This document shows, piece by piece, positions 15,865 through 52,669 of a stretch of DNA of 64,000 nt (positions are counted from its first letter, which is position 1; each line of letters opens with the position of its first letter). The notes below the pieces were generated by a model. The model was not told the origin of the DNA. It did not search any database and saw only the letters and a list, made by a program, of their open reading frames with translations. Location of the stretch: positions 1 through 64,000 of the forward strand of contig QPGO01000213.1 in assembly GCA_008632985.1 (NCBI GenBank), in the 5' to 3' direction. This DNA comes from Psammoneis japonica (lineage: Eukaryota). Position numbers and translations under genes: made by a program.

Positions 15865-15895
<31 letters not shown>

Positions 15896-16880
15896 GGATT
15901 CAACACGTTCGGTACTTCATGAAGCCATGGAACAACAGACCGTCCGCATCGCCAAGGCGGGTATTATTGCCACGCTACACGCGAGGACTTCTATTTTGGC
16001 GTCGGCAAACCCTACCTCGTCCAGGTACAATCCCAACCAGTCTGTGGTGGATAACATCCAACTACCGCCAACGCTACTGTCTAGGTTTGATTTGATTTAC
16101 TTGGTCTTGGATTCTCCCAACGTGGAACACGACCGGCGTTTGGCTCAGCATCTTGTAGGATTGTACTACGAAACTCCTTCGGTCGTGCGGCCACCGCTCA
16201 AGCAAGAATTGTTGAGGGACTATATCGAGTACGCCAAGGACCATATTCATCCTTACTTGAGTGACGAAGCAACCAAGGACTTGCTGACGGCTTATTTACA
16301 GATGCGAAGCATGCATGGGTGGAGGTGGCTCGCGTACTATTTCAGCCACCCCTCATCAATTGGAATCCATGATTCGTCTCTCGGAAGCATTGGCAAAGAT
16401 GCGCTTCTCCGCAACCATCACGAGAGAGGACGCTCAGGAAGCTATTCGCTTGATTCAAGTAGCCACGCAAAAGCCGCAGAGACCGACACTCGGACGGGTA
16501 GGATTGATATGGACATGATTGCCATGGGCAAGTCGAGTTTGGATCGTCAGGAGCAGGAGAACATGTCGATCCACATCATGGAGCTCTTGTCTCATGTGAG
16601 TAACGACTGTTGAGACAAGTACCTGTGTATCCTTTTCATTCAGTTTTCTCGTTTGCTCATTTTTATTCTTCCTATGTCATACTGAATTATGCTTGAAAGA
16701 GGCAAGGAACTCGTATGGCTGTGCGGGACGTGGTGCAGCAGTTTGAAGAAATTAGCAATGCAGGAGACGAATTGCAGCACCATGACGGGGTAGTAAACAC
16801 TCTTAGGAGCCTGGAGGCGGACGGGTTGGTGCAATTTAATGAACGTGCTCAGACGGGTTTTTTTCGTTTTGGGGTGTTTT
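15198..16880 (+). pseudogene. MCM4: 5'-truncated MCM4 helicase pseudogene
   Basis: OB fold (VQPGDRIEITG), Walker A DPGTSKSQLL, YTSGKGSSAVGLTA, IDEFDKM, LLSRFDLIY. Frameshifts near 15505, 15680 (gtgaccc duplicated) and 16315; ATPRQLE appears as ATPHQLE; no N-terminus. Confidence 0.88.
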
Positions 16881-25275: not shown

Positions 25276-26938
25276 ATGGACGCGGCGCCTTTGTTGGACT
25301 TTGGCGGTGAAGGAGATGAGACTCCCGAACGAGAGTGCATGCAACGCTTGTTCCAAAGGATTGCGGTTCAAAACGAGCAGGAAATGGAGAAACTTGAAGA
25401 ACCATTGCGGTCGCTGGTGCGACTGGTGCATCAGGCAAGGACACATTTTCTTTCAGCTCTGCACTCCCCATGGATGGAGAATTGAAACCGAAAAAAAGAG
25501 AATCAACTCACGTGCGCTGATTGCCTTTTGCTCAAAGCAAAAATGGGTCGAGGCAAAGGAGTGCATCCTGTTGCACCCACAAGCAATGCATGAGATCACA
25601 ACTTTGTTTGCTGGCAGATCTGTCACTCACATGGCCTGCAGCAATTTGGCTGATGTTGAAGAATTCAATGAAGCAGCTCGTGTTCAAAAACTCAACCAAG
25701 ATGATAAAACGGAACGTCAAACATGTGACTTTGTGCAGTCATTGTTTGATGCAGCTTTCAGTTCCGACGATTTAGATTCACCCTCGAAACGGGCACTCGT
25801 ACAATCAATGTTGTTTTGTCGCGATTGCAAAGGATGCACGCTGCTGCAAAGCCGCGTCATCTACAACTTCTGGAGTGCGACTGATCCAGCGCCGCCAGCA
25901 AAGATTCTTCTGGAGTCGGCTGGAAATGCCTCTCCCACAACTCCGTGCGAATTGGTCACCGCTGCATGCGAGAGAGGCCGGACAGTGTTGCACATTGCAT
26001 CAGGGGGGGAGTTCCCGCACCAGATTTTTGAGCTTCTAATGGCTTGTTGCGGAGGCGCTCCGTCAGAGAACCCCACTTTAATTCTAGATGGAGATGGTCA
26101 ATCCATTCTAGACCTTGCGGTTGTCAATGCTCTGTCGGGAAGGCGTTGGAATGGGATGTTGGAACAAGGTTTCGGAGGACTTGTGCATCAAAATGATGAG
26201 GGTTTGTTTCCAATTGACAGAGTGGTTCAGGTTGCTCATCGTTTTGAGAGACCGGGAGAGCACATCTGTGAAATTGTTTTTCTCATGTTGCGAGCTCACT
26301 TTGGAAAAGTCGAAGCAGCATCTGAAGACTGGTTTCCACTTCATGCTCTGGCGCAGGCACCCTTTTGTTGCCCGTGCGTGTCAAAGTTTCTCCTTGAAAC
26401 ATGCAACTGGAGCAACCAGCTTTCAACCTTGGATTGTCAAGGCATGTTGCCACTTCACAAGGCGGCTGCACAACCCATGCCAGAGTTGCTGCTGAGAGCC
26501 AACCAAACTCCACTGACCTCAAAGGAAGTGAGTGCCTTGCAGGCACTGTCAGCTCAAAAAGCACTTGAAGAGCTTCGGTGTCACCCAAAGGAGCCAATCC
26601 CGTCGTTGAGTGGCATGGAAATGACGGAAGGTGAAAACAATGTGATTCTTTTGTTGCTGAATGCTGGCCCTGATGCTGCGGCTGCACCAGCAATGGTTGG
26701 CAGTCGGCTGGCACTTCACTGTGCCATCGAATCGGGTCACGCATGGGAAGCAGTGCGACAGTTGTAGAAGACTGCTCCAGATTCAGTGATTGCTCCTGAT
26801 CCTAAAACAGGACTGTTTCCATTCATGCTGGCTGCGCCAGCTCCCGAAAATCCTTCTTCTGGCTTCGAGAGGAAGTCCAACAGTGGACTGGATGCGACAC
26901 TCGATTGGTTTGCATTGCCCAAGCACATTTCTCCCCAA
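25276..26938 (+). pseudogene. Ankyrin-repeat protein (diatom type), hypermutated
   Basis: GRTVLHIA, FPLHALA, MLPLHKAA, LALHCAIESG, DPKTGLFPFMLAA. Intron 25435-25537 has a GCAAGG donor and joins in frame; TAG stop at 26765-26767; one Tyr in 508 aa. Confidence 0.75.
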
Positions 26939-32637: not shown

Positions 32638-33736
32638 TTATTCCTCTTGTAGCATCTCGTTACGAATGCGCTTTTCAATGAGTGGCTTGTGCCTCCGGTT
32701 CCGTTGTTTTTTCAAGCGCTCGTAGGTATTTCTGAATTCCTTTCGCTTGGCCTCCTTGGCTTCCTCCGACTCGCAGGCTGCGAGTTCTTCCTCCGTAGGC
32801 CGATACGGAGGGAGGGGATGTAGAGCTACAAGCTCGGCCTTGACTCGCTTTTCAAAGGGGGTTTTCGTGGATTTTTTATCTCGATGCCTCTGCTGCCGTT
32901 CTGCATTGGTCAGTGGGCGCGCATTGCGTTGGCGAGCCGCTTGTTCAGTGTCGTCCGAGGCCTTCTTCTCCTTGCTGATTTGGAGACGCCCGCTGGCAAC
33001 ACAAGCAACAATGTTGTGAGTGCATCCAAAGAAAATAGAATTTGGAAACTTGTCACAATACTTACAGCTCCGCATCAAGGTCAGCCAGTTCCCTTTTGAA
33101 ATCTACAATCTTCATCTCTAGAACTTCAACCTCCTTGGCAAGTCGTTCCTTCTTGAGGTTTAAAAAGGCAATCTTGGCATCGGTGCCGTCGGAGGCTGCA
33201 CTCTCCGGGGTACCATCATCCTTAGTAGCAGCTTCGGTAGCAGCCTTGGGCGCCGGCGTGACGTCCATGGCGGGACAGCGCGCCATGTTGGCGTCACGAG
33301 CATCCTTCCAGCGGCCCTTGTTCTGCGACAGCCACAACGCAAACTTCGTTCGCTGTTGCTGGCTCGGAAATTTCTCCTCGAGCTTAGGAATCTTCACATA
33401 CAAATTCGACGCTCGGTAGCCACTCACGAAGATTTCGTCCAACTCTCCACGCTTGGCGGGATTCATCACTAACTCGCGCCACAAGTGCTTGTCCCGAGCA
33501 TCCTTCCATTGGGGCTTGTTGTTCGAAAGCCATTCCCCCACCTTCGCTTCCTGGCCCGGAAATTCATCCTCGAGCTGAGGAATCATCGCATACAACGTCG
33601 ACGCTTGGAAGCCATTCTCGAAGATTTCGTCCAACTCTCCACGCTTGGCGGGCTTGACGACGAGCTCTTCCAAAGTGGGGTGGCTATAGCCACGGTGGCT
33701 AGATAAGATCCTGGTTTCGTTGGACGAAGTACTCAT
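32638..33736 (-). CDS. Uncharacterised 2-exon protein with a duplicated PAKRGELDEIF domain, coiled coil and basic C-terminus (exons 33736-33066, 32992-32638)
   Basis: ATG at 33736; a GTAAGT...GCCAG intron joins AEL|GRLQ in frame; paralogs at 53966-55097 and about 39500-40200. Confidence 0.7.
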
Positions 33737-34237
33737 CTTGAAGGTAGATACAATGATCGTAGGAACCGAAAGCAACAACAACAGCAACTACGCCGCTAGC
33801 TAGCTAGTCTACAACGCAATAATGACAGCGTCACCGTTTTGGAGTTTTCGATCGTTCCATCTCCCGAGCGCCGGCCTCGGCGACGTTATTTTTGAACAGA
33901 AGTTCGAAGATGTAAATGGATTAAGTATACTTATATAGAAATCCAACTGGCCGGCTTATGAACGTATACAAAAATATATTGATTTTCAATCATTTCTAAG
34001 TCCTGTATAATAATATTATCTATAGATACTCACTTATTTCAATTATGATTATGGCCCATAAAGCTTCTACGAATAAATCAAGTATGTAGAAAAGCTATGT
34101 ACATTACACGCAAGGCACGACTATCAACGGAAAAACAAATATTTTTTTAGCACGAATCAACGTCGTGTGTACCGTAGACTACGGCGTGCAAGGAGCCTGT
34201 GCGCGACGCGCCGCCCCATGCATCTCATGCATTCACC
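33737..34237. promoter_or_regulatory. Conserved divergent intergenic region, copy 1
   Basis: Shares blocks with 55098-55560 (ttccatctcccgagcgccggcctcggcgacgttatttttgaaca; tatagaaatccaactggccggc; ggcacgactatcaacggaaaaa); lies between head-to-head genes. Confidence 0.6.
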
Positions 34238-36298
34238 ATGTCCATGTTGTCACTTTTGGAAGTGCTGCGACGACGGAAAATGACGACGACACCCGGCGCT
34301 GTGCCTCCTCAGATCCTATCTGCGTTGGAGGAGCTTCGTACACCCTCGAGCTGCTCAAATTCAGCAGAAGCGGCATGCGAGCTTTTCGAATTCTGCAATG
34401 AGCGGAAGGACAAAATTCCTCAGTCGCTCACCCAAGCCGGATTTCTTGAGACAATCATTGGTGCAATGGATCACGATGGGCAAAGCAAATCCTTTTACGT
34501 GTGTGTCATTCTTGTGATCCAAACTTTCATGAAGTCAAACGAAGACAACACAGAAGAATTCTTTGAAAAGGGCGGTCTCAAAAGAACAGTGTTTCTGATG
34601 GATGCATTTGTCACGGACGAAATCATTCAGACGGCGGGAGTTCAATGCCTCTGTTACCTTATGTTCAGAATCAGTGAGAAGTTCGCGGTTGAAATGGGGA
34701 CAAGAATCATGGAATGTGTTGTCAGAGCGATGGAAATTCACAAAGACTCAGCCTCGATCGCTGATTTTGGCATTGCAGGTCTAGTGAAGGCATCGGACTT
34801 GCTGCAACATGCGTTTCGTAATGATTTGATGCTTCGGTGCAAAACATGTCTCGAGCATTTGCTCCCAAACCATCTGCCTGATGTTGAGGGATGTGAGGAG
34901 AACTGTTCGCACTTGCTTGAGGAGTTTGACAAAATGCTCTTTCTCCGTCGTTAGCCAGAGAAACTGAGCAATTCATCTCTCAGTGCGTCGGAGGCCACGC
35001 AGCTCTTTCATGCTGTCGCATTGTTTGTTGCCAAGCCAGGCATGTCAGGAGCACTAGTCGGCGGCGGATTTTTCAAAATGGCCATTGCTTCATTGAATGA
35101 CGGTGGGCGGACCCGAGAGGTCTGTGAACAGCTTTGTGTGATGCTCACTGTGTTCATGGGCCTCGACGACAAAGGCAAGGGTTGCACGGAACAAATCCTT
35201 CGCATTGGCGGCCTCGAAAGCGCTCTTTGTATCGTCAACAGTTTCCCAAAAGATGAAAGGTGTCAGAGATCGGTGCTGGAGCTTTACCGCTTTTTCTGCG
35301 TGAATGGCACAGATGCAAAGAACGGGGCGGACATTGCGAACACGGTGCTCGAAAGCGCAATCAACATCATGAGCAACCATGAAGACTCGGCGCTTGTCTT
35401 CAGGCTATCTTGCCAGGCGGTTTTTGAGGCATTGCTTGTTCTTGACTTCTCTGTCAATGACGACGCGCTCTTTGACCAATGCATCAACTGCGTTTCCACT
35501 GGGGTTGCGAAGCATTGGAATGACAATGAATCTGTCGGAGTCGGTCGATGTGTGCTGGAAGGTTTGATTGGAGTGGACGCTTCAAACGAGGTGTTGGCAA
35601 AGCACTCTATGTCACATTTCACTTCCCAACTAGAGGAACTTCGTCATCCATCTCGCAATTCCGTGAAGGCGCTCGCGGCCGCACGGGAGCTTTGCTCCGC
35701 AATCGGCGCGGAAAAATTCCCCCTGTCCCTTGTCGATTCTGATTTTTTGGATGTAATCACCCATGCAATGAATCACCTCGGCCAGTCCAAAAGTTTCTAT
35801 TTTCCTTTGTTGATGATCCTTGTAAATCTCATTCATCTGGAAGACGCAACTGAGAAAATCGTTGAGATGGGAGGCGTCGCAAGATTGCTTGGTTTTATGA
35901 AATCCTTTGTGAACGAAGAGACATGGCAGTTGAATGCTCTTTACGTCATCCAACATTTTGCTTCTGAGAAGGGCGGTGCCTTTGCTGCTGCCATTGTCAA
36001 GAACGTCACAGAGGCAATGCGAGCCCACAAGGACTCGACAAAAATCTACTCCGCGGGTTGTAAGGCACTTGAGCAATCGTTGGAATCGATTGGATGGTGT
36101 GTTGAAGATGAAAAATTGCTCAAGAGAGTTGTGGACTGCGTTTGGTGTGGCATTGCAAATCATCCCTACGACGACGACTTGCAGTTGCGAGGTCGTAAGC
36201 TGCTGCACGTGTTGGTTGGAGATGAGGCTGCCAAAGAAATGATTTCATGTTCTGAGCATCGTCATTGTGCCGATGCTCACTGCAGTGCCGCTGCTTGA
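34238..36298 (+). pseudogene. Armadillo/HEAT-like helical repeat protein with three long repeats and one in-frame TAG
   Basis: Repeated LEELR.PS...GQSKSFY...GG units; ORFs 34199-34954 and 35021-36298 are in the same frame, separated only by TAG at 34952-34954. Confidence 0.65.
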
Positions 36299-37219
36299 GA
36301 GGTGCAGTTGTGAATTCTGAGAATTCTTTCGGATTTTGAAGTGGATTTGTAGTTTTTTGTCCTTGACCAAGACAAGTTACGGCGCCCAACTGTCCCTTCT
36401 TGATCTCTTGTCCATTGCCGGCACAGGAAAACAAGGATCAAGATGGTCGTGCATCCACAGCAGAGAAACGCGTAGAAATCATGCCAGAAAAAAATCCCAA
36501 CAATTTTCGTTTCTTTTCTCTTTGTTTGTCATGATCAAATGAGTGCATTTCTCATTGCAATTGACGGTGCACTTTGATGCAAAGTTCAGCATCCTGGTTT
36601 GAGGACTTCACAATTGGGAACACAAACAGGCACGGATGCGGAAAGCAGCAATTCGCTTGAGCATGCGAACTGCTGCAAGAAAGTTTTCTGTCTTGACAAG
36701 TCTTGAAGAGAGAATTCGAGGCCTGCAGTGCTGCTCTGGAGCAGCAGCAGCTCTCAAACAAAATGTGCACTGTGCAGTTATGATGGTCACATGCACCGTG
36801 TGGCAGCAACAACCTCATTTGTTGTTGCTGTTGTTCTGTTCGACTCCCGAGGGCTGATTGTGTGGTGCAACTCCGAGACACTCGGAGATCGAAAGGTTGA
36901 GGTGTCCACACTGCACGGCACTGCAAGATCTTGATTCTGCAGCCATTTTTTCAGGGGACGATGTGTCCTTTGCATCAACCTTTGGTCTTGGAGGCATGCA
37001 ATGCCCATTTGTGTGTGTGTGNAATGCCCATTTTTGTGTGTGGGGGGCGTGTGTGCCAACCTCCTTTGGGCACACATGAACACTGGGCAGCTGTGCCAAT
37101 GACAAAGATGTCAAGGTTTCAGAGAAGAGACTTCAAACCCGCTTGTCTAAATTGTGGCACACTTTGCCTTGAAGAGGCAGGTGGAAGGGTTTTCTGCTGC
37201 TGCCACCCACAAAAAACAT

Positions 37220-37620
37220 GTGTGTGCTGCACAGATTGCTGCTGCGAAGCACACCAGATGGGGTCATTTGTTGGCTGTTGACCAGCACACCCAGTGCCAC
37301 CACAGGGCTCACAAGGACATGCCAGAATGTTGGCCAAGCCAGTGGCTGAGAAAAAGAAGGTTTCTGAGCTTCTGAAAGGCATCTCTGAACCCAGATTGGA
37401 AACCAGGAAGAGTGTGGTGGATGGAAACCACACCAAGCTTGTGGGCTTTGAGGCTTGCAAGCAGCACGTCAAAGCTCTGGTCAAGAGTGCCAAGAGCCAG
37501 CACAGGAGGGCCAAAACTTGCACAACTGCCTGTGTTGGCCAACATGAGAGCAACTGACATAGAAAGCAAGGTGGCAAGAAAGGTGCAAAGAAGGAAACAC
37601 CTGGGATTGGGGCAGGCTGC
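37220..37620 (+). mobile_element. Ty1/copia (CoDi-type) gag remnant
   Basis: EKKKVSELLKGISEPRLETRKSVVDGNHTKLVGFEACKQHVKALV resembles the CoDi gag pattern KKV..FL.GI.D..L...K..V...KL..FE.CQQY (Tyr appears as His). Confidence 0.55.
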
Positions 37621-38549
37621 TGATGAGCAATGAGGCCGGCTCTGTCTGCTCTGCGGCTCCAGTGCATGCATGCGAGACCCCCTCATTTTTTTGGAATGCT
37701 CTGCATGGCAGAGTCTTGCACAAAACACACTTGCAGATCTAACAATGATCAATTGCACAGCATCAACAAAGAAGCCAGCACCTGCACCACCCAACAGATG
37801 TTGTCAAACTCATTGTAGAAGCATGCCAAGGTGCACTGGAATGGAGAGAATCGGCAATCAGTTCACTCCATTTCATCCAACGCTGAACCATCCCCAGTGC
37901 AAAATCATCACTTTTTTGGTTGGTGCTGACATGCTTCATTGATTGTCATCATGCACTTGGCTTTGTTGCACCTTGCAAGCCTTGGTGTGGAAATGTGTGT
38001 GTCTTGAGTGGTTGTCTTGTGGTTTTTGTCGTAAAATGGTTCTGTGATTTGTGAGAATTGACTTGCCAGACATGTGCTCACTTAGAGATGGGACTCTTTC
38101 TTGTCATGATGCAGGTTCTCAGCTCACACAATGCCAACAATGATGGTCAATGCTGCAGTGGATGCAGCAGAACCATCTTTGCTCTCACATTGCCTGCTTG
38201 TTTTCTCATGCTTGTGTGCTGCTTGATGACAGAGCCTTGACTGCCTCAAGAAGCCCCAAACCAAGCAAGATTGAATGTGGCAACAAATGCAAGGAGGAGC
38301 TGTCTGTGCAGACCTGGCCAATTTGTTCTTTCCAGGGGGGGGGGGAGGAGATTGTGCCAGTCCCGATGAGAATCACAACCAGCTCAGTGAAGTGGGGTCA
38401 TTCAAGCAGTTGTCAGATCAGAGCTCTTGTCTTCCCTCTGTCTAAAACACAGAGGTGAGAATCTTGTTGTTGTTTTGGTGCACAGGGTGCACCACATTTT
38501 CATTTTCCCTGTTGTGCTGACACAACACATTGTGTGTCTTCAAGGTCCA

Positions 38550-39250
38550 CTTTAAACTGTTGCAACCCGGAGAATCGCCCAAACTGGTGCCCTGCCAGTG
38601 GTGAATTTGATTGCTGCAAAGTTTCCTGCAACAAAAGCACTGTCTGAATTGAGCATTGATGATGGAATGGACGGGCACCGGTTCTTGCATGTCCTGTGGC
38701 AACAATGATCCACACTGCACCCAAACTGCAGGCTTGGTCCCAAATGTGGGAATTGCAGATTGGGCATGAGAAAGTTTGTGAAATGCAGCCATCATCGAGA
38801 AAAAGGCAAAACCTGGAGGCTCATTGCTGTCAATGGCACAAGAGAGGGTGAGCTCATTTGGGAGCACGGGTGAAGTCATTGACCAAGAAACAAGAAAGAA
38901 ATGCCTTGGAACATGGGCTGGATCATCCAAACAACCCCCATTGCTGCATGATGCATCTTGACACCAGACGGCACATTGATGCCATAAAATCCTGCAGGAA
39001 CATGGCTCCTGGCAAATTTCTGTGATGCAACCACCATTTTGATGCAAAGGATGTTTTCAATGTCAAGGCACCTTGTCGGGAAGAGAGTGGGAGGAAAACA
39101 GGAACAAGAAGTTGCAAGAGTGCACTTTGAGCATGACAAGAAATTTCTGTTGGACCTTGGCAAAGACAAAGCATGCAGACATTGGTGCATGTTTCCGATC
39201 TTGTGCCAGGCACTGCCAAAGACAAGACCATTGCGAGTGGACTGCAAGAT
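38550..39250 (-). mobile_element. Ty1/copia RT-RNase H remnant
   Basis: Fragmentary KIGNMH (DIGNAY-like), LLPQDMQEP (LPPNMPEP-like) and NSDSAFVAGN...FTTG (DSDFAG...STTG-like). Confidence 0.4.
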
Positions 39251-39499
39251 TGCAGTCAAGAGTTTGCAGTGAAAAGAAGGCTCTTCTTGTGGTGCATTGT
39301 CATTTTTGGGCTGACTTTGAGTGCCAATTAACAGCAAGAGCAGTGCCAAAGCACCTTGCTGTCTCTGCTTTGGCAAATTACAAAAACAGAAGAAGTGCAA
39401 GTGCTGCACATTTTCACTTTCCTGAATGTTGTGTGCTGCATTTCTCAAACACACGTTGTGTTTCCTGAATGTTGCACATTGCATTTCCTTTTCCCAAAG

Positions 39500-40200
39500 C
39501 ACATTGCGGTTGAGTGGAATCTTTTCAAAACAATGGCAAAGGGAGACTGGCTTTCCAGCATTGGGAGCCAGTCATGCCAATGGTGGGAGTCTCTGCAGCC
39601 ATCTTAATTTGAAGAAGCCTGCTGGCAACAGCGGCAGCAGAAAGAGAAAACAGAAGCAACATTGTGAGCACAATGAAAGGCAATGGACTGTGGCTGCTGG
39701 CACAACACTTGCATCTTTTCTGCAAGAGCCTCCATTTCCAGGAGCTCTGCATGCAATGCTTTGGAATCAAAGATGATCTTTTCCTGGGAAGCAATGGCAT
39801 CGCTGATGATTGCTGCCCTCTTCTTCTCCAACTCAGCTTTCATGACAAGGCACTTCCTTTTGACCTTTGATGCAGCAATCTTGGTGTCCCTGTCCATGTC
39901 ATTGGAGGCCAAAGCTGCCAGCATTTGGTGCTCCCAGCAGTGCTTCATGTTCACAAGCCAGTGCCACAAGACCTGCTGCTGGTCCGGCAGAAATTCATCC
40001 TGGAGCTCTGCTTGAGATTCCTCCAAGTCAACGATGGTCTTGCTGATGATGGCTGCCTTCTTCTCAAACAACTCTGACTTTTTGATGCATTGTGTCCTTT
40101 CAAACTTCAATGGGGCAATCTTCTTTTCAACTGTCAACAAGAAATTCTTGGCATCCATGTCATGGAAGGGGGCGAGGTTGCCGGACAAAGTGTGAACACT
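39500..40200 (-). pseudogene. Hypermutated partial paralog of the 53966-55097 gene family
   Basis: Intron, second exon and downstream flank align with 53745-54360 (gctggcaacag..gagaaaacagaa..ttgtgagcacaa..caatggactgtgg..gctggca); donor GTAAGT appears as GCAAGT. Confidence 0.7.
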
Positions 40201-40220
40201 CATGGTGCACAGCACCGTGT

Positions 40221-40427
40221 TGGGGAAAGTCTCCAGCCAGCTGCTGGCTGAAGAATCTTGTGTGGAATTTGTGCTGAAAGAGTCTGTCAATCTGCGTGTC
40301 AGGGGATTTTGGTGAATGCTGGACAGACTCGTCATCTTTTGTGCACACAACGATTCTGCTGGCAAAAGCCCCAAACGCACCAATGACCAGATTTTTTCAG
40401 CCAGCAGCTGGCTGGAGACTTCCCCCA
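40221..40427. mobile_element. MITE with about 32-bp TIRs, hypermutated copy
   Basis: tggggaaagtctccagccagctgctggctgaa pairs with ttcagccagcagctggctggagacttccccca; flanked by gtgt on both sides. Confidence 0.75.
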
Positions 40428-40451
40428 GTGTGACAACTCCTGCAGTGATTG

Positions 40452-41700
40452 CACCCCTGTGGCAGGGGAGAATGTGGTGATGTCACAATCATGTGGCAGT
40501 TTTGTGTCTCATTCATTGTGTTTTTACACAAATGATGTTCTCACATTCATTTGTGCATTTGTGCACAAATGCCAACAGCAACAGGAAACATCCTGAACCA
40601 CATTCTCCCCCAAAACTCTGACCACCAAAATCTGCAGGTGCTGTTGACACTGGTGTTGTCTTTTGCCAACAATGCCCACAATGAAGTGCCAACAACTCAC
40701 ACTTCTTTCTTTCTCACCCTGCTGCCTCCCAAAGATGCTGTCACAATGCAAACACTGCACCTGCATTTCAGTCCACTGGCATGCCCGATGCTGTTCCTTC
40801 TGCCCTTGCTGTCACAGGTGCTGTTGATGCTGTCATTGTTTTTCCTTTTTGGAAGGAGGACAATGGATGATGGTGGACCAGGAAACTGTCACCATGGCAT
40901 GCTGATGGACAAGTGTTGGTGTCATTGCCCTGCTGATGGACAAGTGTTGGTTTTGTTGCTGACATGCTTTCTGTGTTTGTTCATGGTTTTCCAGTTTTGG
41001 TTCAAGACATCTTCTGAAGAACTTGCATCCCGTTGGGCAAAGACACAGCAATCAACTTTTCAGGCATCAACACCTGTGTTGCACAAGTGTTCAGTGGGCT
41101 CTTTGCCTCCCTTTTGCTGGCCTGCAACATCAGTGGACATGAACAGCGCCTCTTTGTTGGCTCTTGAGTTTGGATTGATCTTTAGAATGTGTGCAGACTT
41201 GTGGTGCAGCTCTCTGTAAATTAGAAACCTGATGACATTCAGACAGCAGGCACTCTTTTGCAGTTTTTTAGTTGGAGAGGTCAGCAAATTGGCATTTGTT
41301 TGCAGGCAACTTGGCAAGGTTTCAAGTGGTGCATGTGACTTGGACACCGCACTCCATTTGCCAGGACTGAGTCATTGTCTGCAATTCCGTAAGATGCCAC
41401 TCTTGCTGTTTGAATTCTGCACACAACATGCAATGTGCTTTTTTGTAAGTTGCCAAAATGGAGGCAGGCTGCAATGTGCTTTTGGTGAATGCTCACTGTG
41501 TTTGTCACTGTTAGACCTTCTGAGCTGGAACCACATTGACAGCCATGCTGCCACTTTGCATGCACTGGCACCTTCTCCACCTGTGCTCCATTGGCCAGGG
41601 CCTCCTTCATGTTGATGCGGCTCATCTTGATGCCTGTTGTTGGCTCTGATTGGCTCCGCTGGGCTCTGGGTGAGTGTCAATCACCTCCAGACAGAGGTGC
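40452..41700 (+). repeat. Repeat-family copy starting cacccctgtggcaggggag; inverted copy of about 48200-49250
   Basis: The first about 180 bp match 47494-47670; 40630-41700 matches the reverse complement of 48200-49250. Confidence 0.75.
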
Positions 41701-43109
41701 AACAACATTTCAAAAATGAAAACGACTTGTCGTGCAAAAAGTTTGAAAATTTTCAGCTGTTGCCATTCATCTGGCCATCACATGTGCACTTTGACCTTGC
41801 AGCCTCTCACTCTCTCGTCCTCTTGTCCTCTTCCTTTTCTTCACAAACTTGGAGAGCCACCTGTGTGACCAGACATGTGAAAAAAATGAGGCAGGGCGTG
41901 CCGGAGAGGATGATGGATGAAGAAAGTCAAAGATGTGCCTCCGGTGGGCAGGAATTCAGAATTTCCAAGGTGCTGGAAATTTGAAAAGGTGCTGATTTTC
42001 TTTTCAAGTGCTGATTTTGAAAGGCACAAGTGCAGACAATCATTTGACGGCATGGCATCTGGCATCTGGCATCATGACAGATTTTCCTGATGCGAACACT
42101 CTCGCCATGACCTGCAAACATCACCAACCACTGGAGAGGACCCACCACCCATTGGCTGCAGCAGTCACCTGGTTCCTGCTGTCTTGCTCTGTTGGCATTT
42201 CAACCAGACACCTGACAAGCAAACAAATGCCATTCATTGCACTGATTGACCAAGCAACCACTGTCCACAAAATGGCGGCCCACAGAGCACCTTGCTCTTG
42301 CAGCTCTAGAACCTGTTGATTGCCGCATCAACCAGCGGGTGCGGCTCACAGTCTAGAACCCGTTGATTGCCACAACAACCAGTGACCCACAGAGCATGAC
42401 CTGACTGTCACTGCTCCAGAGAATGTTTTGATTGCCACACGAACCTTTCCACCACTTGTTGCTCCCAGCAATTCTCAGCTGTCATTGTTCTTGCAGTGGC
42501 ACTTGGTCACTTTGTCAGAGCTTTTGAGCTGCAACCCTTGACTTCTTCCTGGAGAGGGGCAGCATCACTCACAGGTGGCACAACAGCACGACTGCAGTTC
42601 ATTGATTTTTGTGATGAGCACCATGTTTGCCCCCCATGGTGGATGCTCATGCAATTGCTGGTGGGTTCACAGTGCACTCACACACCACACATGTTTCTGC
42701 ATTTTGGCACATGTGATTGGCGGCAGATTGCGACACATCCATGCACTGCAGCTCTGCTTGAAATGGACATTTTGCATTCATGGTGCAGCAATTTTCAGGA
42801 TGATCTTTGCGCATGCAATGCAAAGGGCGGACAGAGCAATTGATGGTTGTTTTCATGGCTCTCTGCTCCAGAGCTGGAGAGCCTGCTCTCTCTCTGCCGC
42901 AGAGCTGCCACTCTCTGCCAGAAGACACTGTGATTGCATGCAAAACATGCCAGGACAGATGTTGCAATTTGTCACATGCATCCAGACACATGGCGCATTT
43001 TGACAATGGCACATTGATGTCGCATGTTGATGCATTTTGACAAGAGCTGTTCTTTTGCCAACCGAACTCATTTCAATTGCCAACCCTGCTCATTTTGATT
43101 GCCAAAAAT

Positions 43110-43625
43110 TGGCAATTGAAATGAGCAGCATTTGAGCTTGTTTGAGCACATTTGAGCATGTGTGAGCAATTTGAGCACATTTGAGCAAGGACATTTCAGC
43201 GCACAATCCAAATGGTGATGAACTGTGAAACCTTCCGTGTCCCACTGTTGGAAAGATCGTGCACACCAGCAGTTGCATGTCCTCCTGTGAAAGTCCTGCC
43301 AGAAATTGAAAACCTTGCACAACAGCCAATGGATGGTTGCCCATGCAATGTCTGCCCCTGCAGCTCTTTGCGTGCTGCGCTCCAGGGCGATCAACAAGAT
43401 GCGCTTGGCCTCAGCACTGTGCGTGCCCATTTCTCTTCTTCTTCATTTGGCGCTGTTGTGTCTGTTGGTCAAGGAGAATTCAAATGAGCAGCATCTGAGA
43501 ACAATGATTCAAATGAGAAGCATTTGAGCACAATGACTCAAATGAGCAGCATTTGAGCAAATGAGCAGCATTTGAGCCTTTTTGAGCACATTTGAGCACA
43601 AATGGCAATGATTTGAGCACAACTG
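43110..43625. repeat. Two clusters of 10-12-bp TTTGAGCACA/AAATGAGCAGCA repeats (possible transposon subterminal repeats)
   Basis: Visible at about 43115-43200 and 43480-43620, upstream of the pogo-like transposase. Confidence 0.65.
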
Positions 43626-44039
43626 GTGATGACATCAGCAAATTGGTGATGAGAAATAAATGCAAATTTTTGCATTTGAACAAATGTTCATGCTGCAGAA
43701 TCCAACGCAATTTGACGCAGAGCCAAGAAATCCAGACCTGTGAAACTTCAAATGCTCCATTTTGACACCCTTTTGACACTCGCAAATGAAAGATCTGATT
43801 GCGCTGGCCAGGAAAAAAATTTGCCCGACTCCAAAATTCCATGTCGTTGTCATTTATGCACCTCAAAAAATGTTTCCTTGTGACTGTTGATGGGATTGAT
43901 GTTGCACATTGAGGCAATTTTTTGTCACACGCAGAAACAATGCTGACACATGCGCAGGACACCACCAAGATTTGGCACCTCATTTCTTTTTCTAAGATCA
44001 ACCATGGCACCACCTTTGAAGCCTCCAAAAATGCAAAAA

Positions 44040-45560
44040 GATGCAAAGAAGGCCAAGCTTTCTTTTGCAACTGACTTCTTCTAAAAAAACATCGTGGTCA
44101 TCCAAAGAAGAAAAAAGTGGCACTCGCAAAGGATGCTGCAAGCAGCACTGCCAGAATCAACAAGGCACTTTCTGTGCCCAAGACAACAAAGAACTGGGCT
44201 GCCAAGAATGCTGCAGCAGCTGAGAACAATGAAGACAAGAAGCGCAAGGCATCAACAGATGGCAGCAAGAGTGATGGGTTCATTGCAGCAAAGAAACCAA
44301 GGATGAGTTGGTCCAAGGAGCCTCATCTGTCAATCATGATGGGCATGGCTTGGCAAGAAGGACCCAGCTTTGTGACAGCAATGGAGAATCTCATTCAACA
44401 GAAGCATTTGCCAGTGTCATTGGAGTGCCAATCATCACCTTCAGAAAGTGCATCAATGGCGACCCTGCAAAATGACATCAGATTGGCAACAGCCTTGGAA
44501 GAAAGCCAATTGTCAATGTGACATCCCAAGAGGTGATTGCGCAATCAATTGCCAAGCTTGAAAGAGCCAATTGTGGACTTTCAAAAACAGAATTTGTTGA
44601 TCTGGTTGAGCAAGTGTGCCCAGATTTAAAAAGCCACAACAGTGCAGCCAACCACTTCTGAAGGACGGTGCAGCCAAATCATGCAGAAACCATCAAGAAG
44701 AAAGAGCAAAAGGCTCAGGCAACAACAACCAAATGAAGTGCAGCCACAATGGATGGTCGATGTTGGTGGTTTGTGGAGGTTGAGAATGCTTCAAACTTTC
44801 TCAGGAGCAGGAACGTTGGTCGCTGTGGGGTGACAGGCAAGCTTTTTGGCAAGGTTGTTCAGCATTTTGTTCAGGTGGGTTACGAGTCTTGCTGCATTGT
44901 GTCAGATGGCACCGTCTGTGTTGTCTGTTCTCTTGGTAAAAAGAAACATGAGAAAATCTTGCACAACTCTTGTGTGTCAATGTTGGTTTGTCACACGGGT
45001 TCTGCCCCTGGATGCCAGGCCCCCCCTGTTTTTCTTCTTGCTGGTTTGAGGAGGCATGCAGGGTCATGCACCGATGTGCATCTTAGAAAGCTGGGTGCTG
45101 CCAAAGGTTCCACAATCATCATGACCCTGGCTGCTTTCATGACAGAAGAAGCACGGGCAAAACAACTCCCACTGCAGCGTTGGGTTGCAGAAATGCTCAT
45201 CCAAGGAAAGCAGCAGCCAACAACCTGCAGTGGCAGACACTGGAGACACTTGATGGGTTTGGTCCGCACTTCTCTTCATTGGAAGCCATGGAATGCCATT
45301 GGAACAACAATGTCATGTTGTTGAAAGAAGAAGGTGATGCATCGCATCATGCCAATCAATCACATGATCAACTGGAGGCAGCCAGTGACAAAGATCTCAA
45401 GCGTGACAGGCTTGGGTCATGTCAAAGCACTTGGATGATGAGTCTGTTGCAGCACTGGCATGACAGAAGACAAATGTCACATCCATCAGGCCATGGCTGT
45501 GATGACAGCTGCAGCAACAACAAAGACAAAAGTTTGCAAGCCCAAGGCTCCTGCAGCATG
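44040..45560 (+). mobile_element. pogo/Tigger-type (DDE_1) transposase pseudogene, hypermutated
   Basis: KKKHEK, PVFLLAG, GSTIIMT..AFMTEEA, LDGFGPH, LLKEEGDASHHANQSHD (Tyr appears as His in the NQxYD-type motif). Confidence 0.7.
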
Positions 45561-45926
45561 TGACTGTTGCACACATGTTTGCAATCATGTGTTGTTTGTG
45601 TGTCAATCGTGCCACAGTCGTGGATGCATGCAAAGGACAGAATGATCACACAGAGTTGATCGGATGTCGAAAATTGCAAACACAATCAATTGACGATGTT
45701 GACATCTTGCGTGTCAACAGCAATTGCACCCGGACAATCTGTTGTCATGAACATTTTCTCCGAAAGGCCTTTTGTCTGCAGAAGCAGTGCAGAAGCTTCA
45801 GGCCATTGAGAACTCGTTCGGAGAAACCAAAAATCACAGAGCAAAATTTAATCTTGCAATTTTCACTTTTCACACTTGATTCTGCTTTCATTTGCACTTG
45901 TTCTTCGAGCACAGTGCACTCCCAAG

Positions 45927-46810
45927 ATGGGGGGAGTTTTCTCTGTCGGTGCTTCTGAAATGGTGGCTTCAACTGGCGGGAAACCCAAGGCTGACTGGTC
46001 CGGGCTGGACCCGTCTGCTGCCCCCAATCTGACGTCTCTGAATCAGTGTTGCTCTCACCATGTCTCTTCTGCTCAGAAGAGGTTTGCAAAGAAGGGAGAT
46101 CTCGCAACTTTTGAGAAAAATGTCTTGAAACATCTCAAGGACTGTGGATTGGACACAGCGACTTGCCTGCGGGACCCCAAGGACTCAACTGCAATGATGT
46201 CCTTCATTGAAGGACATCCTCGTTGCTCCAAATTGAGTGTCACTTGCCTTGTTGCACCTCAACTTGCCAAGCATGATTCCTGCAACACCTCCAATTGCAG
46301 GGGCACTGCTGAGTTTCTCAAGAACTTCATGTTGGAGACTGGTCCTGCAGACCCTCCAGTTGGATCTGGAGACAGAAGAAATGGATTGCTTCCTGAAGGT
46401 TTGGGTCACTCTCATTTTGATTCTACAGAGCACATCTGTCAAATGCTTCAAGCAGGTCAAGAAGCAGCAGGAGAATCTCAAGCCCTCTCAGTTTGCCCTT
46501 CCTTTCTGAGCTCTGCTGTCTAAGTTCAAGACTGCCACTCAAGAGTTGGATGTTGTGGGTCAGCATGACAACAAGTTGACACTTGCCTTGGTCAACTCAT
46601 GCTTGGGGGCTGCCTGTGTCATGGAGAGAACAAACAGCAGTTCAAGCACACTCTTCAAGCAATGAAGGAGGACTTCATTAAGGCACTGGTTGAGACAGCT
46701 CACAAGAAGTCCAAGACAGATGCAAAGCAACACCTTGCATCCAAGAACCTTGCCTGCTCCCAATGCGCTTTGGATTTTGAAGCAGATTTGCAGCTTTTCA
46801 TCCTTGAGTG
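45927..46810 (+). mobile_element. Ty1/copia CoDi-type gag remnant, hypermutated
   Basis: TGGKPKADWSGL, HLKDCGLDTATCLRDP, GQHDNKLTL; positions expected to be Tyr read as Cys or His. Confidence 0.7.
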
Positions 46811-47493
46811 AGACAAATTGCAGCTCCCAACTGTCCCTTCTTGATGTCTCCTTCTCCATTCTAGGATGACAAGGATTGAGATGGCTCTGCATCCATCCAA
46901 GGAGATGCATGTTGTGCTGTGCCAGCTTGCAGCCAAACAATGAGTCTTGGTGGCCCCGCGTCAGTGCCCACAAAATTGCCCCTTTGTGGGGATGGCCACG
47001 CACCAATCTCCATTGGGTGCACACAAACATTGGGCAGCTGAGCCAATGACAAACATGCCAAGGATTCAGAGGGGGATTCAAATCCACTTGCATCTCCTTT
47101 CTAGATTGCAGCACATTTTCTGTGCAAAACTCCACTTGGTTTTGACTCCTTTGGCTTTGGCTTTCTGAGCACAAATTTTGAGTGCAGCTGTGTGCATCCA
47201 GAAGGATTTTGCAGACAGCTGAAGGTTGTGTTTTGTTGCTCTGTGCTTTTCACCCTCTTTCTCATTCCAGGTTTTCTTGCAACAGCAGCAGTGGGAACAG
47301 AAAACAGAGGCAAGGTTTTGTGAGCAGCAATGAAGACTGTGGCTGCTGGTGGCACAACACTCACACCGTCTTTGCATGCTGAGAGTTGCTTTCATGCTGG
47401 GCCTGCGCCATTTGGCGCATGTAGAATCTCGTGTAGAAATCACGTGCGCCACTGTGGCGCAAAATTTGTCACGCCCTGAACTCCTGCCTGTTC

Positions 47494-49616
47494 CACCCCT
47501 GTGGCAGGGGAGAATGTGGTGATGTCATTGTTGCGTGGCAGTTTGTGTCTTGTTCATTGTGTTTTCACACAAATGTGCTTGCATTCATTTGTGTGTTTTC
47601 ACACAAATGCTGACAGCAGCAGGAAAAATCCTGAACCACATTCTCCCCTAAAACTCTAACCACCAAAAACCAAGGGCACGGAAGCGCACTTTTTGAAGAC
47701 AGCGCACACACCAAAACATCACGCGTTTCGACAACTTGACCATGACGACCTCCCGTTCTTCATCCCCCACACCACCTGATGCACACCCACCTGCCGTTCC
47801 TGACACGGCAGTCTCTCCTGCATTGGCTGGTGCCGTCAAACCCGCTGTTGTAACCCAAACACAGCACATTTGCGATCCTGAAGTTTGGGCCCATTTTCAT
47901 TGGATCCAAAATTGACCGTGGCTGCCATTGCCGCCATTTGTCATTGAGTGCTGCAATCAAGCACAATGCAACAACAAGGCGAAACAACCCCACTCGTGCT
48001 GCGACTGCCATGGATGCAAGCAGGCCTGGTGGTGGCAGAGCAAGGCAATTTTGCCAGGATCAACAAAGGCATGGGATCAACAAGCACCAATGCACTGGTC
48101 GATGCTCCTTGTGTGGGCGTGGGCATGGCAGAGGACCATCTATGATGGGAGGCATGGTGACAACTTTTCTCAGGATGATTGTTCCCAAGCAGAACCTCCT
48201 CCATCTGGAGGTGATTGAGACTCACCCAGAGCCCAGTGGAACCAATTGGAGCCAACAACAGGTGTCAAGATGAACCGCAGCAACATGCAAAGGAGGACGC
48301 AGCTGATGGAACACGGGCAGAGAAGGTGCCAGCATGCAAAGTGGCAGCACAGCTGTCGACATGGCACTGGTTTTGAAGGTCTGACAGTGACAAACACAGT
48401 GAGCATTTGCCAAAAGCACGTTGCTGCCTGCCTCCATTTTAGCTGCTTACAAAAAAGCATGTTGTGCATCACATGTAGAATTCAAATGGCGAGAGTGGCC
48501 TCTCATGGAATTGCACACAATGACCCAGTCCTGGAAAGCAGAGCAGTGTCCAAGTCACATGCACCACTTGAAACCTTGCCAAGTCACCTGCAAACAAATG
48601 CCAATTCGCCAACCTCTCCAACTTGAAACTAAAAAACTGTGAAAGCATGCCTGCCATCTGGTTGTCATCAGGTTTCTAACACACAGAGAGCCACACAATG
48701 TGTCTGTACATTCTAAAGATTAGACTGCACTCGAGAGCCAACCAAGAGGCACTGTTCATGTCCATTGATGTGTTGTCCATCAGCAGGCCGTGGTTGTGTG
48801 GGTTTCCTGGTCCGCCGTCATCCATTGTGCTCCTTCCAAAGCAAAAACAATGACAGCATCAACAGCACCTGCGGCAGCAAGGGTGCGATTGACAGTGTCG
48901 GGCATGCCGGGGGCCAAAACGCAGGTGCGGCATTGGGATTCGTGACAGTGTCTGTGGGAGGCAGTGGGGCGAGAATGAAAGAAGTGTGAGTTGCAAGCAC
49001 TTCATTGTGGATGTTGTTGGCAAAAGACAATGACAGTGTCAACAGCACCTGTGGCAGCAAGGGCAGGAGCAACAGTGTTGGGCATGCCAGGGGGCCAAAA
49101 CGCAGGTGCGGTGTTTAAATTCGTGACAGTGTCTGTGGAGGTGGTGGGGCGAGAATGAAAGAAGTGTGAGTTGTTGGCATTTCATTGTGGACGTTGTTGG
49201 CAAAAGACAATGACAGCATCAACAGTGCCTGCGGCAGCAAGGGCAGGAATGACAGTGCTGGGCATGCCAGGGGCCCGAAACGCAGGCATGGCTTTGGAAT
49301 TCGTGACATTGTCTGTGGGAGGCGGTGGAGTGTGCAAACAACAGTGTGAGTTTGTGGCATCTCATTTTGCATGTGTCACACCCACGAGAACCGGAACAAT
49401 GACATCACCTGTTGTGTCAGTGTTGTTGGCAATGGCATCAGCAGGATCGGTGTCCTGGGAAGGCGATGGGGAAGAACCACGAGGCATCATCATGGTCAAG
49501 TCATCAAAATGCGTGTTTTTTGTGCGGAGAAAAGAGCTGCCAGAAGTGCGCTTCCGTACCCTCGGTTTTTGGTGGCGTGGTTTGAACACACACACAGCTC
49601 CCCTGCCACAGGGGTG
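47494..49616. mobile_element. Segment bounded by inverted cacccctgtggcaggggag termini (long-TIR element, or two copies facing each other)
   Basis: 47494-47512 matches the reverse complement of 49598-49616; extended inverted homology between 47660-47760 and 49470-49575. Confidence 0.65.
48842..49370 (+). repeat. About 180-bp tandem repeat, roughly 3 units
   Basis: caaaa(g)acaatgacag..caacag..cctg.ggcagcaaggg starts at 48842, 49021 and 49201. Confidence 0.9.
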
Positions 49617-49839
49617 CTCCCACTTGACTTCCGTGTCAAGCAATGTTGGTTGCTTGGCTGGATCCTGCAACAAGAACTCCGAGACACCCTTTTCCTTGGC
49701 GATTCGTCGAGGAAACATGAGAGTCATCTTTGCCTTTGTCAACACCATCAGCAAAATTTGCCATTCTGTCATCATGCCGGACTGGGGCAGTGGCTGCTTC
49801 AAATGTCTTGAAACAAAGGAATTGGTTGACAACTTTTGA

Positions 49840-52669
49840 GTGGGAAACCGACCAACACGAGAGCTCAGGCAACTGGTCATCAAATGTGGAGGTGCCACTT
49901 CCTGTGAAAGAAAACGCATGCTTTCTGCCCTTGCGATTCTTGGTGCAAGGTTTGAGGCAAACGATCATGTCGGCAAGGTCATTGATGCATGGGCACAGCC
50001 CATTCATTTGGAGAAACAGGCTGAGATGAAGCTTTGGCAGGAGGAACCAAAATTTGTGGCAAAATGTCTGAGCCTTGAATCGATGCAGAGTCAGTTTAAA
50101 GGGGTCTTTTCTCCTTGGTGGGATGCGACGCTATCTTCGTTTGACATCAAACAATGCTTGTCAGAGAGGTCAAATCATGAAAGTTGTGTTTTTGTTGAAT
50201 TGCTTGACATGGCCGTCGGCTCAGGATGCTTTGATGCTGCCATGTGGCTTCTGATGCATTGGAAGGCTCCGTCATCAAAGTCACCTGACATGTGGTGTCA
50301 CTGTAAAATCATGGAAACCGCACTGACCGGTTGGATCCACGATGACATGTTTGCCGTCGATGAGGAGACTCCTCCTCTCTACATGCATGGGGCAAAAGAC
50401 GTCATTGAAGAAACCATGGGGTCCGACTGTAATCCAGCCCACGAAAGGTCGAGAATCAACGAATTTTTTTGGGGTGTGGACTTGGGCGAAGGCGATCGAT
50501 TCGACCTTCACTCGGTTTGGAGAGAAATTCACAAGAAGGCCCCTGCGCATGAGGCCAATGAAGACAGCGAAATTTGGTTCGGTGTTCCACCCAAGATCTT
50601 CACCGCAATCAAAATGGCGTGTACATTGCCGCCGAGTGATTTCGAAGAATCCGGGCAAGCGAAGCTTTTGGACTGTTTTCTGGAAACTGTTTACGACGAA
50701 GACTCCAAATTCCTCTCGGCAGACCTCCCGAGCTTGGCAAAGTTCGTTGTGCTGGACCATCTCCACTTCTTTCAATTCCTCACAAAGCAAAGAAGTAGCA
50801 CAGATGAGACCGTCACTCAAAGCTCATTTCTTGACCTTGACATGCCACTTCTTTGCCCAGTCACCCATGTTTGTGGTTCGGATGAAGCTGACGACGCGGC
50901 CATGACGGACGATGAGGATGTCGAAAATCCATGCTCGATTTGTTTGGAAGCCATGGCCAACCCATTCAAGCTCAGATGCGGGCATTGTTTTCATCACAGA
51001 TGTTTTTTTTGCCATGCTTTCCCTGAGCTGCGAGACGGAGCTGCTGCATCAAGCTCGACAGATGGTGCAAATGAAGTGACCCACGAAGTCCTCTCGACAT
51101 TGCCGAATCTCTCATTTACCCTCGCTAAAGCGAACTGTCCTCATTGTCGCCAATCTGTCAAACCAAGCCTTCAAGAGGCATTTGCACTGAATTTGGCCGA
51201 TGGACTAATGAGGACAGACATGGAACGAAGAGAGCGCCCTTGTTCGCCTCACCTCGATCTTGCAAAGTTTCGAACTGGAATCACAGTTGGCGAATCGCTC
51301 TTAGCCTTCGCGGCATGCAGCGGTGCCATCAGCATCTTTCAGTGGCTCGTTTTGGATTCCGGAGTGAAACCTAATGACGTCTACGCTGGCGATGTCAATG
51401 TCATGCATTTCGCCGTAGCTCACAAGCAGGTCCTTATCCCCACTCCCAGCGCGAACCATGCAGTGGTTCGCCGCGCGAACTCACGAATGCGCGCGATTCC
51501 TGCCCCGAACCATCAAGTGGTTCGCGGCAAGCCAAAAACGAACCGATAGACGATGGGTAAAAGTGTAAAAGATAATGAGATATCTACAATAACATTACAT
51601 CAGTCGATACAGCAACGTCTGTTTGACAATAAGTATGCTTTATTTTAGTGGTTTACTATGTTCTTAAACTTCTCCGTACTGCTACCGTCTTGTTCATCGT
51701 GAGCCTCATTTTTCTGGTTCAATTTTGCATTCGACCCTCTGGTACAAATTACCACGTATATTTCTACGCTCGTCCTCCCGAACCACCTCATGGTTCACCA
51801 ATTCTACGGGGCTCCCGGTACTTATCTACGCAGCGAACCGCCCAATGGTTCGATATTTTTTTCTGGTACTGCCCTACGGTTGTTTCTACGGGGTGAGAAA
51901 ATCACCGCCAACGACCATGACGGTGATTTGACGGCGACCGAGCTCCACACACGAGTGGCGGCTGACAACATAATGCATTGATAACAATGGCTTTTTGCCT
52001 CTGTTAAAAGGTTGTATCTGTGTAGGTACTACTTTATTGTGTCAGTTGCGAGTTTTACGCTACGCAAGTTGCGAACCACTGAGTGGTTCCATTTTTTGCC
52101 CGAGTGGGGTTATCATACGTTGGCTGTGCCTTAACGGCTATTCATCCATGCTTTATGGTAGATTGCAAAGGAGTGCGTTCGATACTTTTGAGCCTTCCTT
52201 GAACTCTGGCACTTCGATGCATGATATTGATCTCAACCTTGATGACAAAAATGTCGCCAAGCGACTGCTATTTTGGAAACGAAAGTTTGGGCTCGCTTCA
52301 CTTCGAAGTGATAACGAAAGTTATGAGTACCGGTACGAAGAGCACGAGCTGGAGCTTCTCCACGAGTTGCCAAGTGACGAAGAAACTCATATTCTGGGTC
52401 TTCAGCGAGTGTCTGAGGACCAGAGTCCGATGCATTATCTACTGATGAATTCCTTGACACACTTTGAAGGACCTATGAGTGATTTACTTTTCAAGCTTTT
52501 ATGGTCTCTTGGTGTATCTGCCATGCCAGCCAACTGGTACCAGCTTGTACTTTCTTTGAGCGTGGACCCAACCATTCGTTCGAATGCCAAGGCGTTCTTG
52601 TCAAAAAGAAGTATTGACCCCTCCTCTGTGTATAACCTATGGGCAACTTCCCAATATTCTGCAAGATGA
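49840..52669 (+). pseudogene. RING-finger plus ankyrin-like protein interrupted by a piggyBac-like insert; 5' part hypermutated
   Basis: CSICLEAM...LRCGHCFHHRC...CPHCR. Removing 51438-52109 plus one TTAT restores HFAVAHKQVL-IIRWLCLNGY in frame. The start codon is uncertain. Confidence 0.75.
51438..52109. mobile_element. Non-autonomous piggyBac-like element (672 bp) with a TTAT target duplication
   Basis: TTAT|CCCCACTC...GAGTGGGG|TTAT; five internal GAACC-N7-GGTTC palindromes. Confidence 0.85.

Follow-up and report, generated by a model that had tools for sequence, protein, structure and literature searches.

In the 64,000-nucleotide window of the P. japonica genome (91.4 Mb in 597 contigs) analysed here, which corresponds to contig C215, positions 1–64000, the splice donor of a duplicated gene at 39.5–40.2 kb has been converted to GCAAGT within a domain depleted of the dinucleotide TA. 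The best explanation, to which we assign a probability of roughly 0.6, is that this donor loss represents predictable collateral damage, one lesion among many, rather than the product of a dedicated inactivation mechanism. Under this reading, a regional mutator would turn the A of TpA to G, on a single strand each time, in domains that are rich in repeats and probably methylated, and would sweep up the duplicated host genes inside them. The strand-wise A>G chemistry suggests adenine deamination or an equivalent lesion, and CG loss is the observation that points to CG methylation and domain silencing.

Copies of the gene and its intron

The gene copy and its intron-bearing relatives in the window comprise the following features.

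39525–40203, minus strand: TA-poor copy of an orphan coiled-coil gene, with an open 195-codon frame if spliced
39713–40203, minus strand: exon 1, 163 codons plus 2 nt, with an ATG-AG start common with the sister copy at C200:112–113k
39622–39712, minus strand: intron, 91 nt, phase 2, GC..AG, with a branch-like CTCAC and a CAG acceptor
39707–39712, minus strand: mutated donor GCAAGT, which is GTAAGT in 5/5 TA-normal copies
39525–39621, minus strand: exon 2, 31 more codons, then TGA
39340–39524, minus strand: 3' flank of the orphan gene, homologous to 53745–53960, containing most of the TA changes cited below
32638–33736, minus strand: intact TA-normal paralog, 341 aa, with intron 32993–33065 and a GTAAGT donor
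53966–55097, minus strand: TA-normal partner copy, broken, with intron 54267–54344 and a GTAAGT donor
47276–47364, minus strand: remnant of the same intron with donor GTGAGT, inside an internally deleted duplicate at ~46770–47670

The first-pass annotation had aligned 39340–39730 with 53745–54350, and the two stretches are indeed paralogs: 298 of 374 ungapped alignment columns are identical, the local alignment score of 270 lies far above those of 200 dinucleotide shuffles (mean 46.8, maximum 66), and BLAST of the 39-kb against the 54-kb copy returns three blocks with E values of 8e-15 to 3e-19. A stretch of about 210 bases in the 54-kb copy, at roughly 54040–54253, is without counterpart at 39.6 kb. 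All ten motifs that the annotation had quoted as TA>CA/TG pairs are present where it placed them, namely AAATAGT at 53772 and AAACAGA at 39384, AGTACAAG at 53782 and AGTGCAAG at 39394, GAATATT at 53812 and GAATGTT at 39424, GTCATAC at 54006 and GTCATGC at 39571, and CACTTAC at 54338 and CACTTGC at 39706, the last being the minus-strand donor change from GTAAGT to GCAAGT. The GAATATT pairing falls inside a short tandem duplication, where pairwise alignment sets 39424 against 53835; a multiple alignment with three TA-normal copies backs the original pairing of 53812 with 39424. At 39 kb, the 14 aligned TA steps of the 54-kb copy have become TG (6), CA (3), AA (3) and GA (1), with one kept.

A genome search found six copies of the intron, and local BLAST added two. 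The five TA-normal copies (33065 and 54344 in the window, C199:23230, C200:105246 and C200:129059) all start with GTAAGT, measure 73–78 nt, are phase 2 and run GTAAGT..CAG; each places an in-frame TAA at the junction when kept, and removal of the intron gives an open frame in 5/5. By these comparative criteria, the donor belongs to a genuine phase-2 intron. The three TA-poor copies have a 13-nt intron insertion in common and carry GCAAGT at 39712 and C200:112455 and GTGAGT at 47364; since both possible products occur at one donor site, TA must have been ancestral there. The first-pass annotation had also proposed comparing GC donors in TA-normal paralogs, where they are found in 0/5 copies against 2/3 TA-poor copies, the third being GTGAGT. 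The 39712 intron matches that of C200:112k at 85/91 bases, which makes the two close sisters, and their GCAAGT donors may derive from a single event. The 47.3-kb remnant was considered as the closest sister of the 39-kb copy and rejected, with 60/89 intron matches against the 85/91 for C200:112k; the stretch that contains it, ~46770–47670, is an internally deleted duplicate of 36.3–40.6 kb that retains four blocks in their original order within 0.9 kb.

Donors are thus changed in 3/3 TA-poor and 0/5 TA-normal copies, as expected of the TpA-mutator product that the annotation had proposed at 39712. Ordinary drift or chance alignment, with a donor T/C difference unrelated to any TA-specific process, would find room in the ~20% divergence of the copies and in the T/C differences that also separate TA-normal copies from one another, yet it does not account for this distribution, for the change of 13/14 aligned TA steps while CA, TG and GC are mostly kept, or for an alignment so far above the shuffles; this reading is largely refuted and is highly improbable.

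The orphan genes constitute a two-exon coiled-coil family; of the two outside homologs listed, one (P0127, E 1.3e-10) is convincing. Searches for the function of the gene gave no match, no usable Atlas match and one weak Pfam match under the cut-off, and dN/dS among the paralogs (0.61–0.94) is uninformative. The 54-kb copy is broken by a 7-nt duplication near 55024–55040 and by a TAA at 54476–54478, its donor being unharmed.

In the copy at 39.5–40.2 kb, the 588-base coding sequence retains 1 TA and 5 CG, and its product is weakly similar to that of the intact paralog C199:22.5k (26/100 residues, E 9e-5). The frame contains no stop and no frameshift, whereas the sister C200 copy has four frameshifting indels. 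The donor is therefore the sole hard lesion within the coding frame, which favours the first-pass annotation. Moreover, pN/pS against the sister is 0.56, below a neutral expectation of 0.69–0.73 by a difference that is not significant (p 0.09–0.20); together with the open frame, this value suggests that the gene may still have been functional at the time of the donor change, which weighs against the collateral-damage reading. A 5'-truncated copy was considered and dropped, as the ATG is common with the sister and the back half of the N-terminal domain is retained; the front half of that domain was not detected in the 39-kb copy.

The branch-like CTCAC and the CAG acceptor of the 39622–39712 intron contain no TA, and both are unaltered. 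At the donor, the context GAT/GCAAGT (the slash marking the exon–intron boundary) gives 6/9 matches to CAG/GTAAGT, with an exon end that lacks AG, and it is probably a weak donor that splices poorly. The TA>CA edit also erases the in-frame TAA at the junction, and because of this erasure a kept intron extends the frame to a TAA at 39604–39606, so that poor splicing would replace the 31 C-terminal residues with 36 encoded by the intron.

TA sites change to TG or CA on both strands, with a flank bias and without new stops

Across 253 normal/poor pairs, 949 TA sites yield 338 TG and 332 CA, with 89 kept; these pairs were picked by TA content, which biases the kept share and leaves the CA:TG split unbiased. 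The direction of change is from TA to TG or CA at 670 of the 860 changed sites, the remainder being compatible with 15% background divergence, and the near-equal numbers of TG and CA, like the occurrence of both products at one donor, indicate that both strands are edited. TpA loss is confined to clustered regions that form sharp multi-kb domains. None of 1976 sense-dicodon changes by TA>CA/TG creates a stop; a mutator of this type can never create a stop codon.

The product depends on the flanking bases. Specifically, 73 GTAA sites gave 46 GCAA and 9 GTGA, with 13 kept, and by distinct context the counts are 37 vs 8 (p 1.5e-5), or 35 vs 8 with MITE loci dropped. In the corresponding order, GTAG gives 62 vs 16, ATAA 56 vs 30 and ATAG 27 vs 13, and contexts with an equal 3' class on both strands yield near-even products. 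These flank-dependent counts fit preferential editing of an A that precedes a pyrimidine. In the paired copies, the antisense A (TTAC) of GTAA is edited ~5 times as often as the sense A, so that a GTAA donor usually becomes GC and less often GTG. Normal/normal control pairs lean the same way by distinct context (GCAA 29 vs 16 of 234) and the opposite way in raw counts (35 vs 75 of 514); an alignment-free regression returns a weaker GTAA bias (0.061 vs 0.032) and no GTAG bias. A bias at branch sites and acceptors (CTAA/TTAG) was rejected, an early CTAA>CCAA excess of 14 vs 4 having vanished in a larger sample (23 vs 28). The genome contains nine PF00383 matches, none of them linked to the TpA process.

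The exposure of splice signals was estimated from a donor census based on 141 kinase matches, of which 40 split, partial or stop-containing loci were taken and their splice solutions scored by an HMM of 20 kinases from the P. japonica genome. Hand-made calls were obtained for 28 loci, 11 gave none and 1 duplicate was dropped; the calls for L164 and L165 were second-ranked by <2 bits and preferred as canonical. The premise that GTA-type donors hold the target dinucleotide, drawn by the first-pass annotation, applies to most of the sample, with 21 GTA donors (13 of them GTAA), 10 GTG and 1 GC among 32, and TAG is present at 18 of 31 acceptors. Combining this census with the flank-bias counts from the normal/poor pairs, per-intron loss at 80–100% conversion is estimated at 0.38–0.48 for donor>GC, 0.15–0.19 for acceptor>TGG and 0.48–0.58 for either; by this estimate, a terminal signal would be lost in about half of the introns engulfed.

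The four readable TA-poor donors comprise two GC (39712 and C200:112455) and two GTG (47364 and 38455), which does not differ from the background of 37:8 (p 0.18). Counts in TA-poor DNA reveal neither a sparing of GTAAGT (3 seen, 4.6 expected) nor a surplus of GCAAGT (246 vs 247 expected); likewise, no GCAAG excess in such DNA emerged from 6-mer enrichment, motif-plus-branch or ab initio intron scans, all of which were underpowered. Intact gene copies contain 22–26 coding TA sites, at which 26–32 of 44–52 possible changes are missense, and the donor accounts for one TA; an additional 1–6 CG changes would make stops.

A probable native GC donor, CAG/GCAAGT, is found in TA-normal DNA (0.58) in the L159 kinase (C209:41400–41900, minus strand). 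The three best splice solutions all include its GC-AG intron, which restores the catalytic-loop motif; GC after CAG is thus probably acceptable to the spliceosome. In this gene, the 94-nt GC-AG intron is followed by a 15-nt micro-exon and then by a 112-nt second intron.

The native intron bears on the idea that the 39.5–40.2 kb gene survives with its GC donor in use, in which case the mutator would supply diatoms with working GC-AG introns. The 195-codon frame left open while the sister acquired four frameshifting indels, the pN/pS of 0.56 and the intact branch-like site and acceptor are what a live gene would show, but this pN/pS is indistinguishable from neutral, the exon ends in GAT instead of AG with its 6/9 matches, and the kinase precedent itself sits in TA-normal DNA (0.58). 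GC donors usually require a closer consensus, as described in PMC2490688 and 10.1101/479493, and a MITE lies within the 5' leader of the gene. Survival with a functional GC donor is quite unlikely on this balance.

Other lesions in the TA-poor domain

The domain that surrounds the gene, and the features discussed below, are as follows.

35001–51000: TA-poor domain, TA observed/expected 0.01–0.17 per kb, CG 0.14–0.51 in 37–50 kb
38230–39330, plus strand: broken partial copy of an NSD-like SET-domain gene, with an open-SET-frame copy on C59
38455–38544, plus strand: putative intron of the SET copy, donor GTAAGA changed to GTGAGA (the tolerated route)
38650–38652, plus strand: premature TGA in the SET copy, from CGA by CG decay; the C200 sister has the TGA too
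40221–40427: MITE of 207 bp, located 17 nt upstream of the ATG; its ends are terminal inverted repeats, and the target duplication is 4 bp
45434–46763: copia-like element remnant, whose relatives match zf-CCHC over the cut-off and RVT_2 under it

G+C remains flat near 0.47 in the window, the TA-poor domain included. Sharp TA-poor domains lie at 21–30, 35–51 and 63–70 kb (TA observed/expected 0.01–0.17), often with CG loss, and TA-poor 1-kb bins constitute 181 of 425 (~42%) in four small repeat-rich contigs that were picked for relatedness to the locus and do not form a random sample. Within a domain, the loss of CG is often strongest in certain parts. Near-normal CG is observed in the TA-poor blocks at C200:115–121k, at C199:12–16k and 49–55k, and at 25–26k of the window, which makes TA loss and CG loss separable.

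The SET copy at 38.2–39.3 kb is disrupted by stops, by frameshifts and by the loss of 96 nt from the SET core in common with its C200 sister, and the two TA-normal partial SET copies examined are broken as well; copies of both the orphan and the SET gene are thereby found broken in TA-normal form, without TA loss. The sister segments have 23 former TA sites that are now CA or TG in both, and the outcome differs at 8 of them although the 96-nt deletion is common, which argues that much of the editing postdates both the sister split and the decay of this neighbour. The SET-gene piece and the orphan-gene 3' end recur as a duplicated segment at C215:89.3–91.5k, C148:11.8–13.6k, C200:123–129k and C199:23–25k, the C215 and C148 copies being 99% identical.

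The domain includes a copia-like remnant and MITEs, but also host-gene duplicates, and many MITE copies are TA-normal. The 207-bp MITE belongs to a family with at least about 40 copies scored elsewhere; its ends read TGGGGGAAG..CTTCCCCCA, and the 4-bp target duplications are variable. Among the 28 copies fetched (L041–L068), 22 retain 5–8 TA and 6 retain 0–2, several of them at a TA-poor edge. The possibility that the TG..CA ends represent edited TA target sites was rejected, with 0/28 copies ending in TA and duplications of 4 bp. The copia-like remnant is interrupted by a 367-bp multi-copy repeat (45552–45919), and together with multi-copy repeats it occupies 43.7–46.8 kb. A copia-like relative (L146, C171:63284–67105) has TA of 0.05–0.48 per 500 bp and an 816-codon open frame, and this partly TA-depleted element may show editing in progress. 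Inverted repeats of ~1 kb at 40634–41697 and 48198–49232, 81% identical, flank an 8.6-kb stretch of the TA-poor domain and are possibly the ends of a large transposon.

None of the 65 ORFs of 36.4–50 kb has a Pfam match over the cut-off. A single-exon ARM-repeat gene at 34178–36298 spans the domain edge, with TA dropping from 0.46 to 0.12, and is broken in both copies, by an in-frame TAG in the window and by a frameshift in the C200 copy. Long open frames at 25151–26767 (ankyrin repeats) and 49840–51549 (RING finger) lie in TA-poor domains or on their margins; they could belong to live genes, or could have been held open by a stop-removing mutator. Outside the domain, similarity of an MCM4-like fragment at 15645–16613 stops after ~residue 225, perhaps through a frameshift or intron; its top identity among the named matches, 81%, is to the diatoms Epithemia and Mayamaea.

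Possible splice damage and comparison with known systems

RIP and APOBEC editing disable genes largely via new stop codons, and a stop-free TA>CA/TG mutator raises the question of how its targets are neutralised. The first-pass annotation had answered that intron-containing genes could be inactivated through splicing rather than through stop codons. This proposal is in keeping with the absence of stops among 1976 changes, the donor as sole hard lesion in the frame and the predominant conversion of GTAA to GCAA. Other observations speak against inactivation through splicing: GC donors can be spliced, two of the four TA-poor donors are GTG, a stop did arise in the domain by CG decay (the TGA at 38650), more than half of the coding TA changes are missense, and the 54-kb copy is broken with an intact donor.

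Pressed further, the proposal would make splice-signal destruction the main knock-out of intron-bearing genes by the mutator, and the cause of death of the 39.5–40.2 kb copy. Its strength lies in a process that creates no stops (0/1976) meeting donors of which 21/32 are GTA and acceptors of which 18/31 are TAG, with an expected terminal-signal loss of 0.48–0.58 per intron, and in a coding frame with no other hard lesion; human GT>GC changes, moreover, mostly abolish normal transcripts (10.1101/479493). Intron retention at 39622–39712 would, against this, lose the last 31 residues only, the 40203 ATG has a MITE 17 nt upstream, the GTG share of readable TA-poor donors is 2/4, and the neighbouring SET copy has suffered deletions and a CGA>TGA stop. 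What can be recognised as the core of the domain, furthermore, is a copia-like element and MITEs, which are not known to have introns. This reading is unlikely, and the same holds for its widest form, in which a stop-free defence mutator would turn about five of six edited GTAA donors to GC by strand bias, splice failure would be the main hard knock-out of intron-bearing genes, survivors would seed working GC-AG introns in diatoms, and the 39.5–40.2 kb gene would have been caught in the act.

In the preferred reading of collateral damage, donor loss would add a hard loss-of-function route to a stop-free mutator, while missense changes, stops from CG decay, indels and insertions also strike the genes of the domain, which are probably silenced before or alongside donor loss. 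Splice damage may be a route of gene silencing, with or without a selective role for splicing loss. For intron-bearing genes, the locus offers a testable answer: given the flank bias, most GTAA donors should go from GT to GC, with about half of engulfed introns damaged. It also offers a possible mutational origin for GC-AG introns. Because the in-frame stop of the donor is erased, gene predictors will take such copies as long single-exon ORFs.

RIP of fungi introduces C>T transitions in repeat-rich blocks, raises TpA, makes stop codons and reaches neighbouring genes; it is premeiotic, homology-triggered and RID-dependent. The present process resembles RIP in its dinucleotide-specific transitions in repeat-rich blocks that spill into adjacent genes, but it removes TpA, makes stops in 0/1976 changes and does not run in the direction of RIP.

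The 39622–39712 intron resembles U2-type GC-AG introns in its GC at +1/+2 followed by AAGT and in its GCAAGT..CCAG ends with CTCAC. Unlike working GC donors, which are described as matching the consensus more closely (PMC2490688), the 39712 donor lacks the exonic AG and has 6/9 matches. In human assays, 15–18% of GT>GC changes keep 1–84% of normal transcript, and do so more frequently where U1 pairs strongly (10.1101/479493). Mutation bias was judged insufficient for GT>GC accumulation in mammals (PMC2490688; 10.1101/479493), whereas here a targeted mutator would produce GT>GC. In Phaeodactylum, DNMT5 performs CG methylation of transposons (PMC9998398). Methylation of this type would account for the loss of CG in these domains and for their CGA>TGA stops, but not for TA loss, and some TA-poor blocks hold normal CG.

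The closest known system is the TpA>TpG/CpA hypermutation of Bigelowiella natans, which acts on both strands, leaves clustered TpA-poor and CpA/TpG-rich windows and is linked to transposon-like DNA (10.64898/2026.01.13.699255). According to that preprint, which cites RIP as an analogue, the ongoing rate is ~1000 times background and varies between lines, viral or other foreign DNA is targeted, and an adenosine deaminase is the proposed enzyme (10.64898/2026.01.13.699255). In the literature covered, outside subscription journals, searches for a TpA mutator in diatoms or for an effect on splicing listed only this preprint as relevant; the words "intron", "stop codon", "diatom" and "flank" do not occur in its main text, where "splic" occurs once, in Methods (10.64898/2026.01.13.699255). 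The two processes share A:T>G:C transitions at TpA that affect either strand, clustered windows poor in TpA and rich in CpA/TpG, and a link to transposon-like DNA. The process described here differs in its diatom host, in the duplicated host genes that are hit, in the frequent loss of CG and in a 3' flank bias that sets the edited strand; in Bigelowiella, the mutation rate was measured. The present analysis adds the stop-free character of the mutator and a strand bias that sends GTAA to GCAA (46) over GTGA (9), linking flank bias to GT>GC donors.
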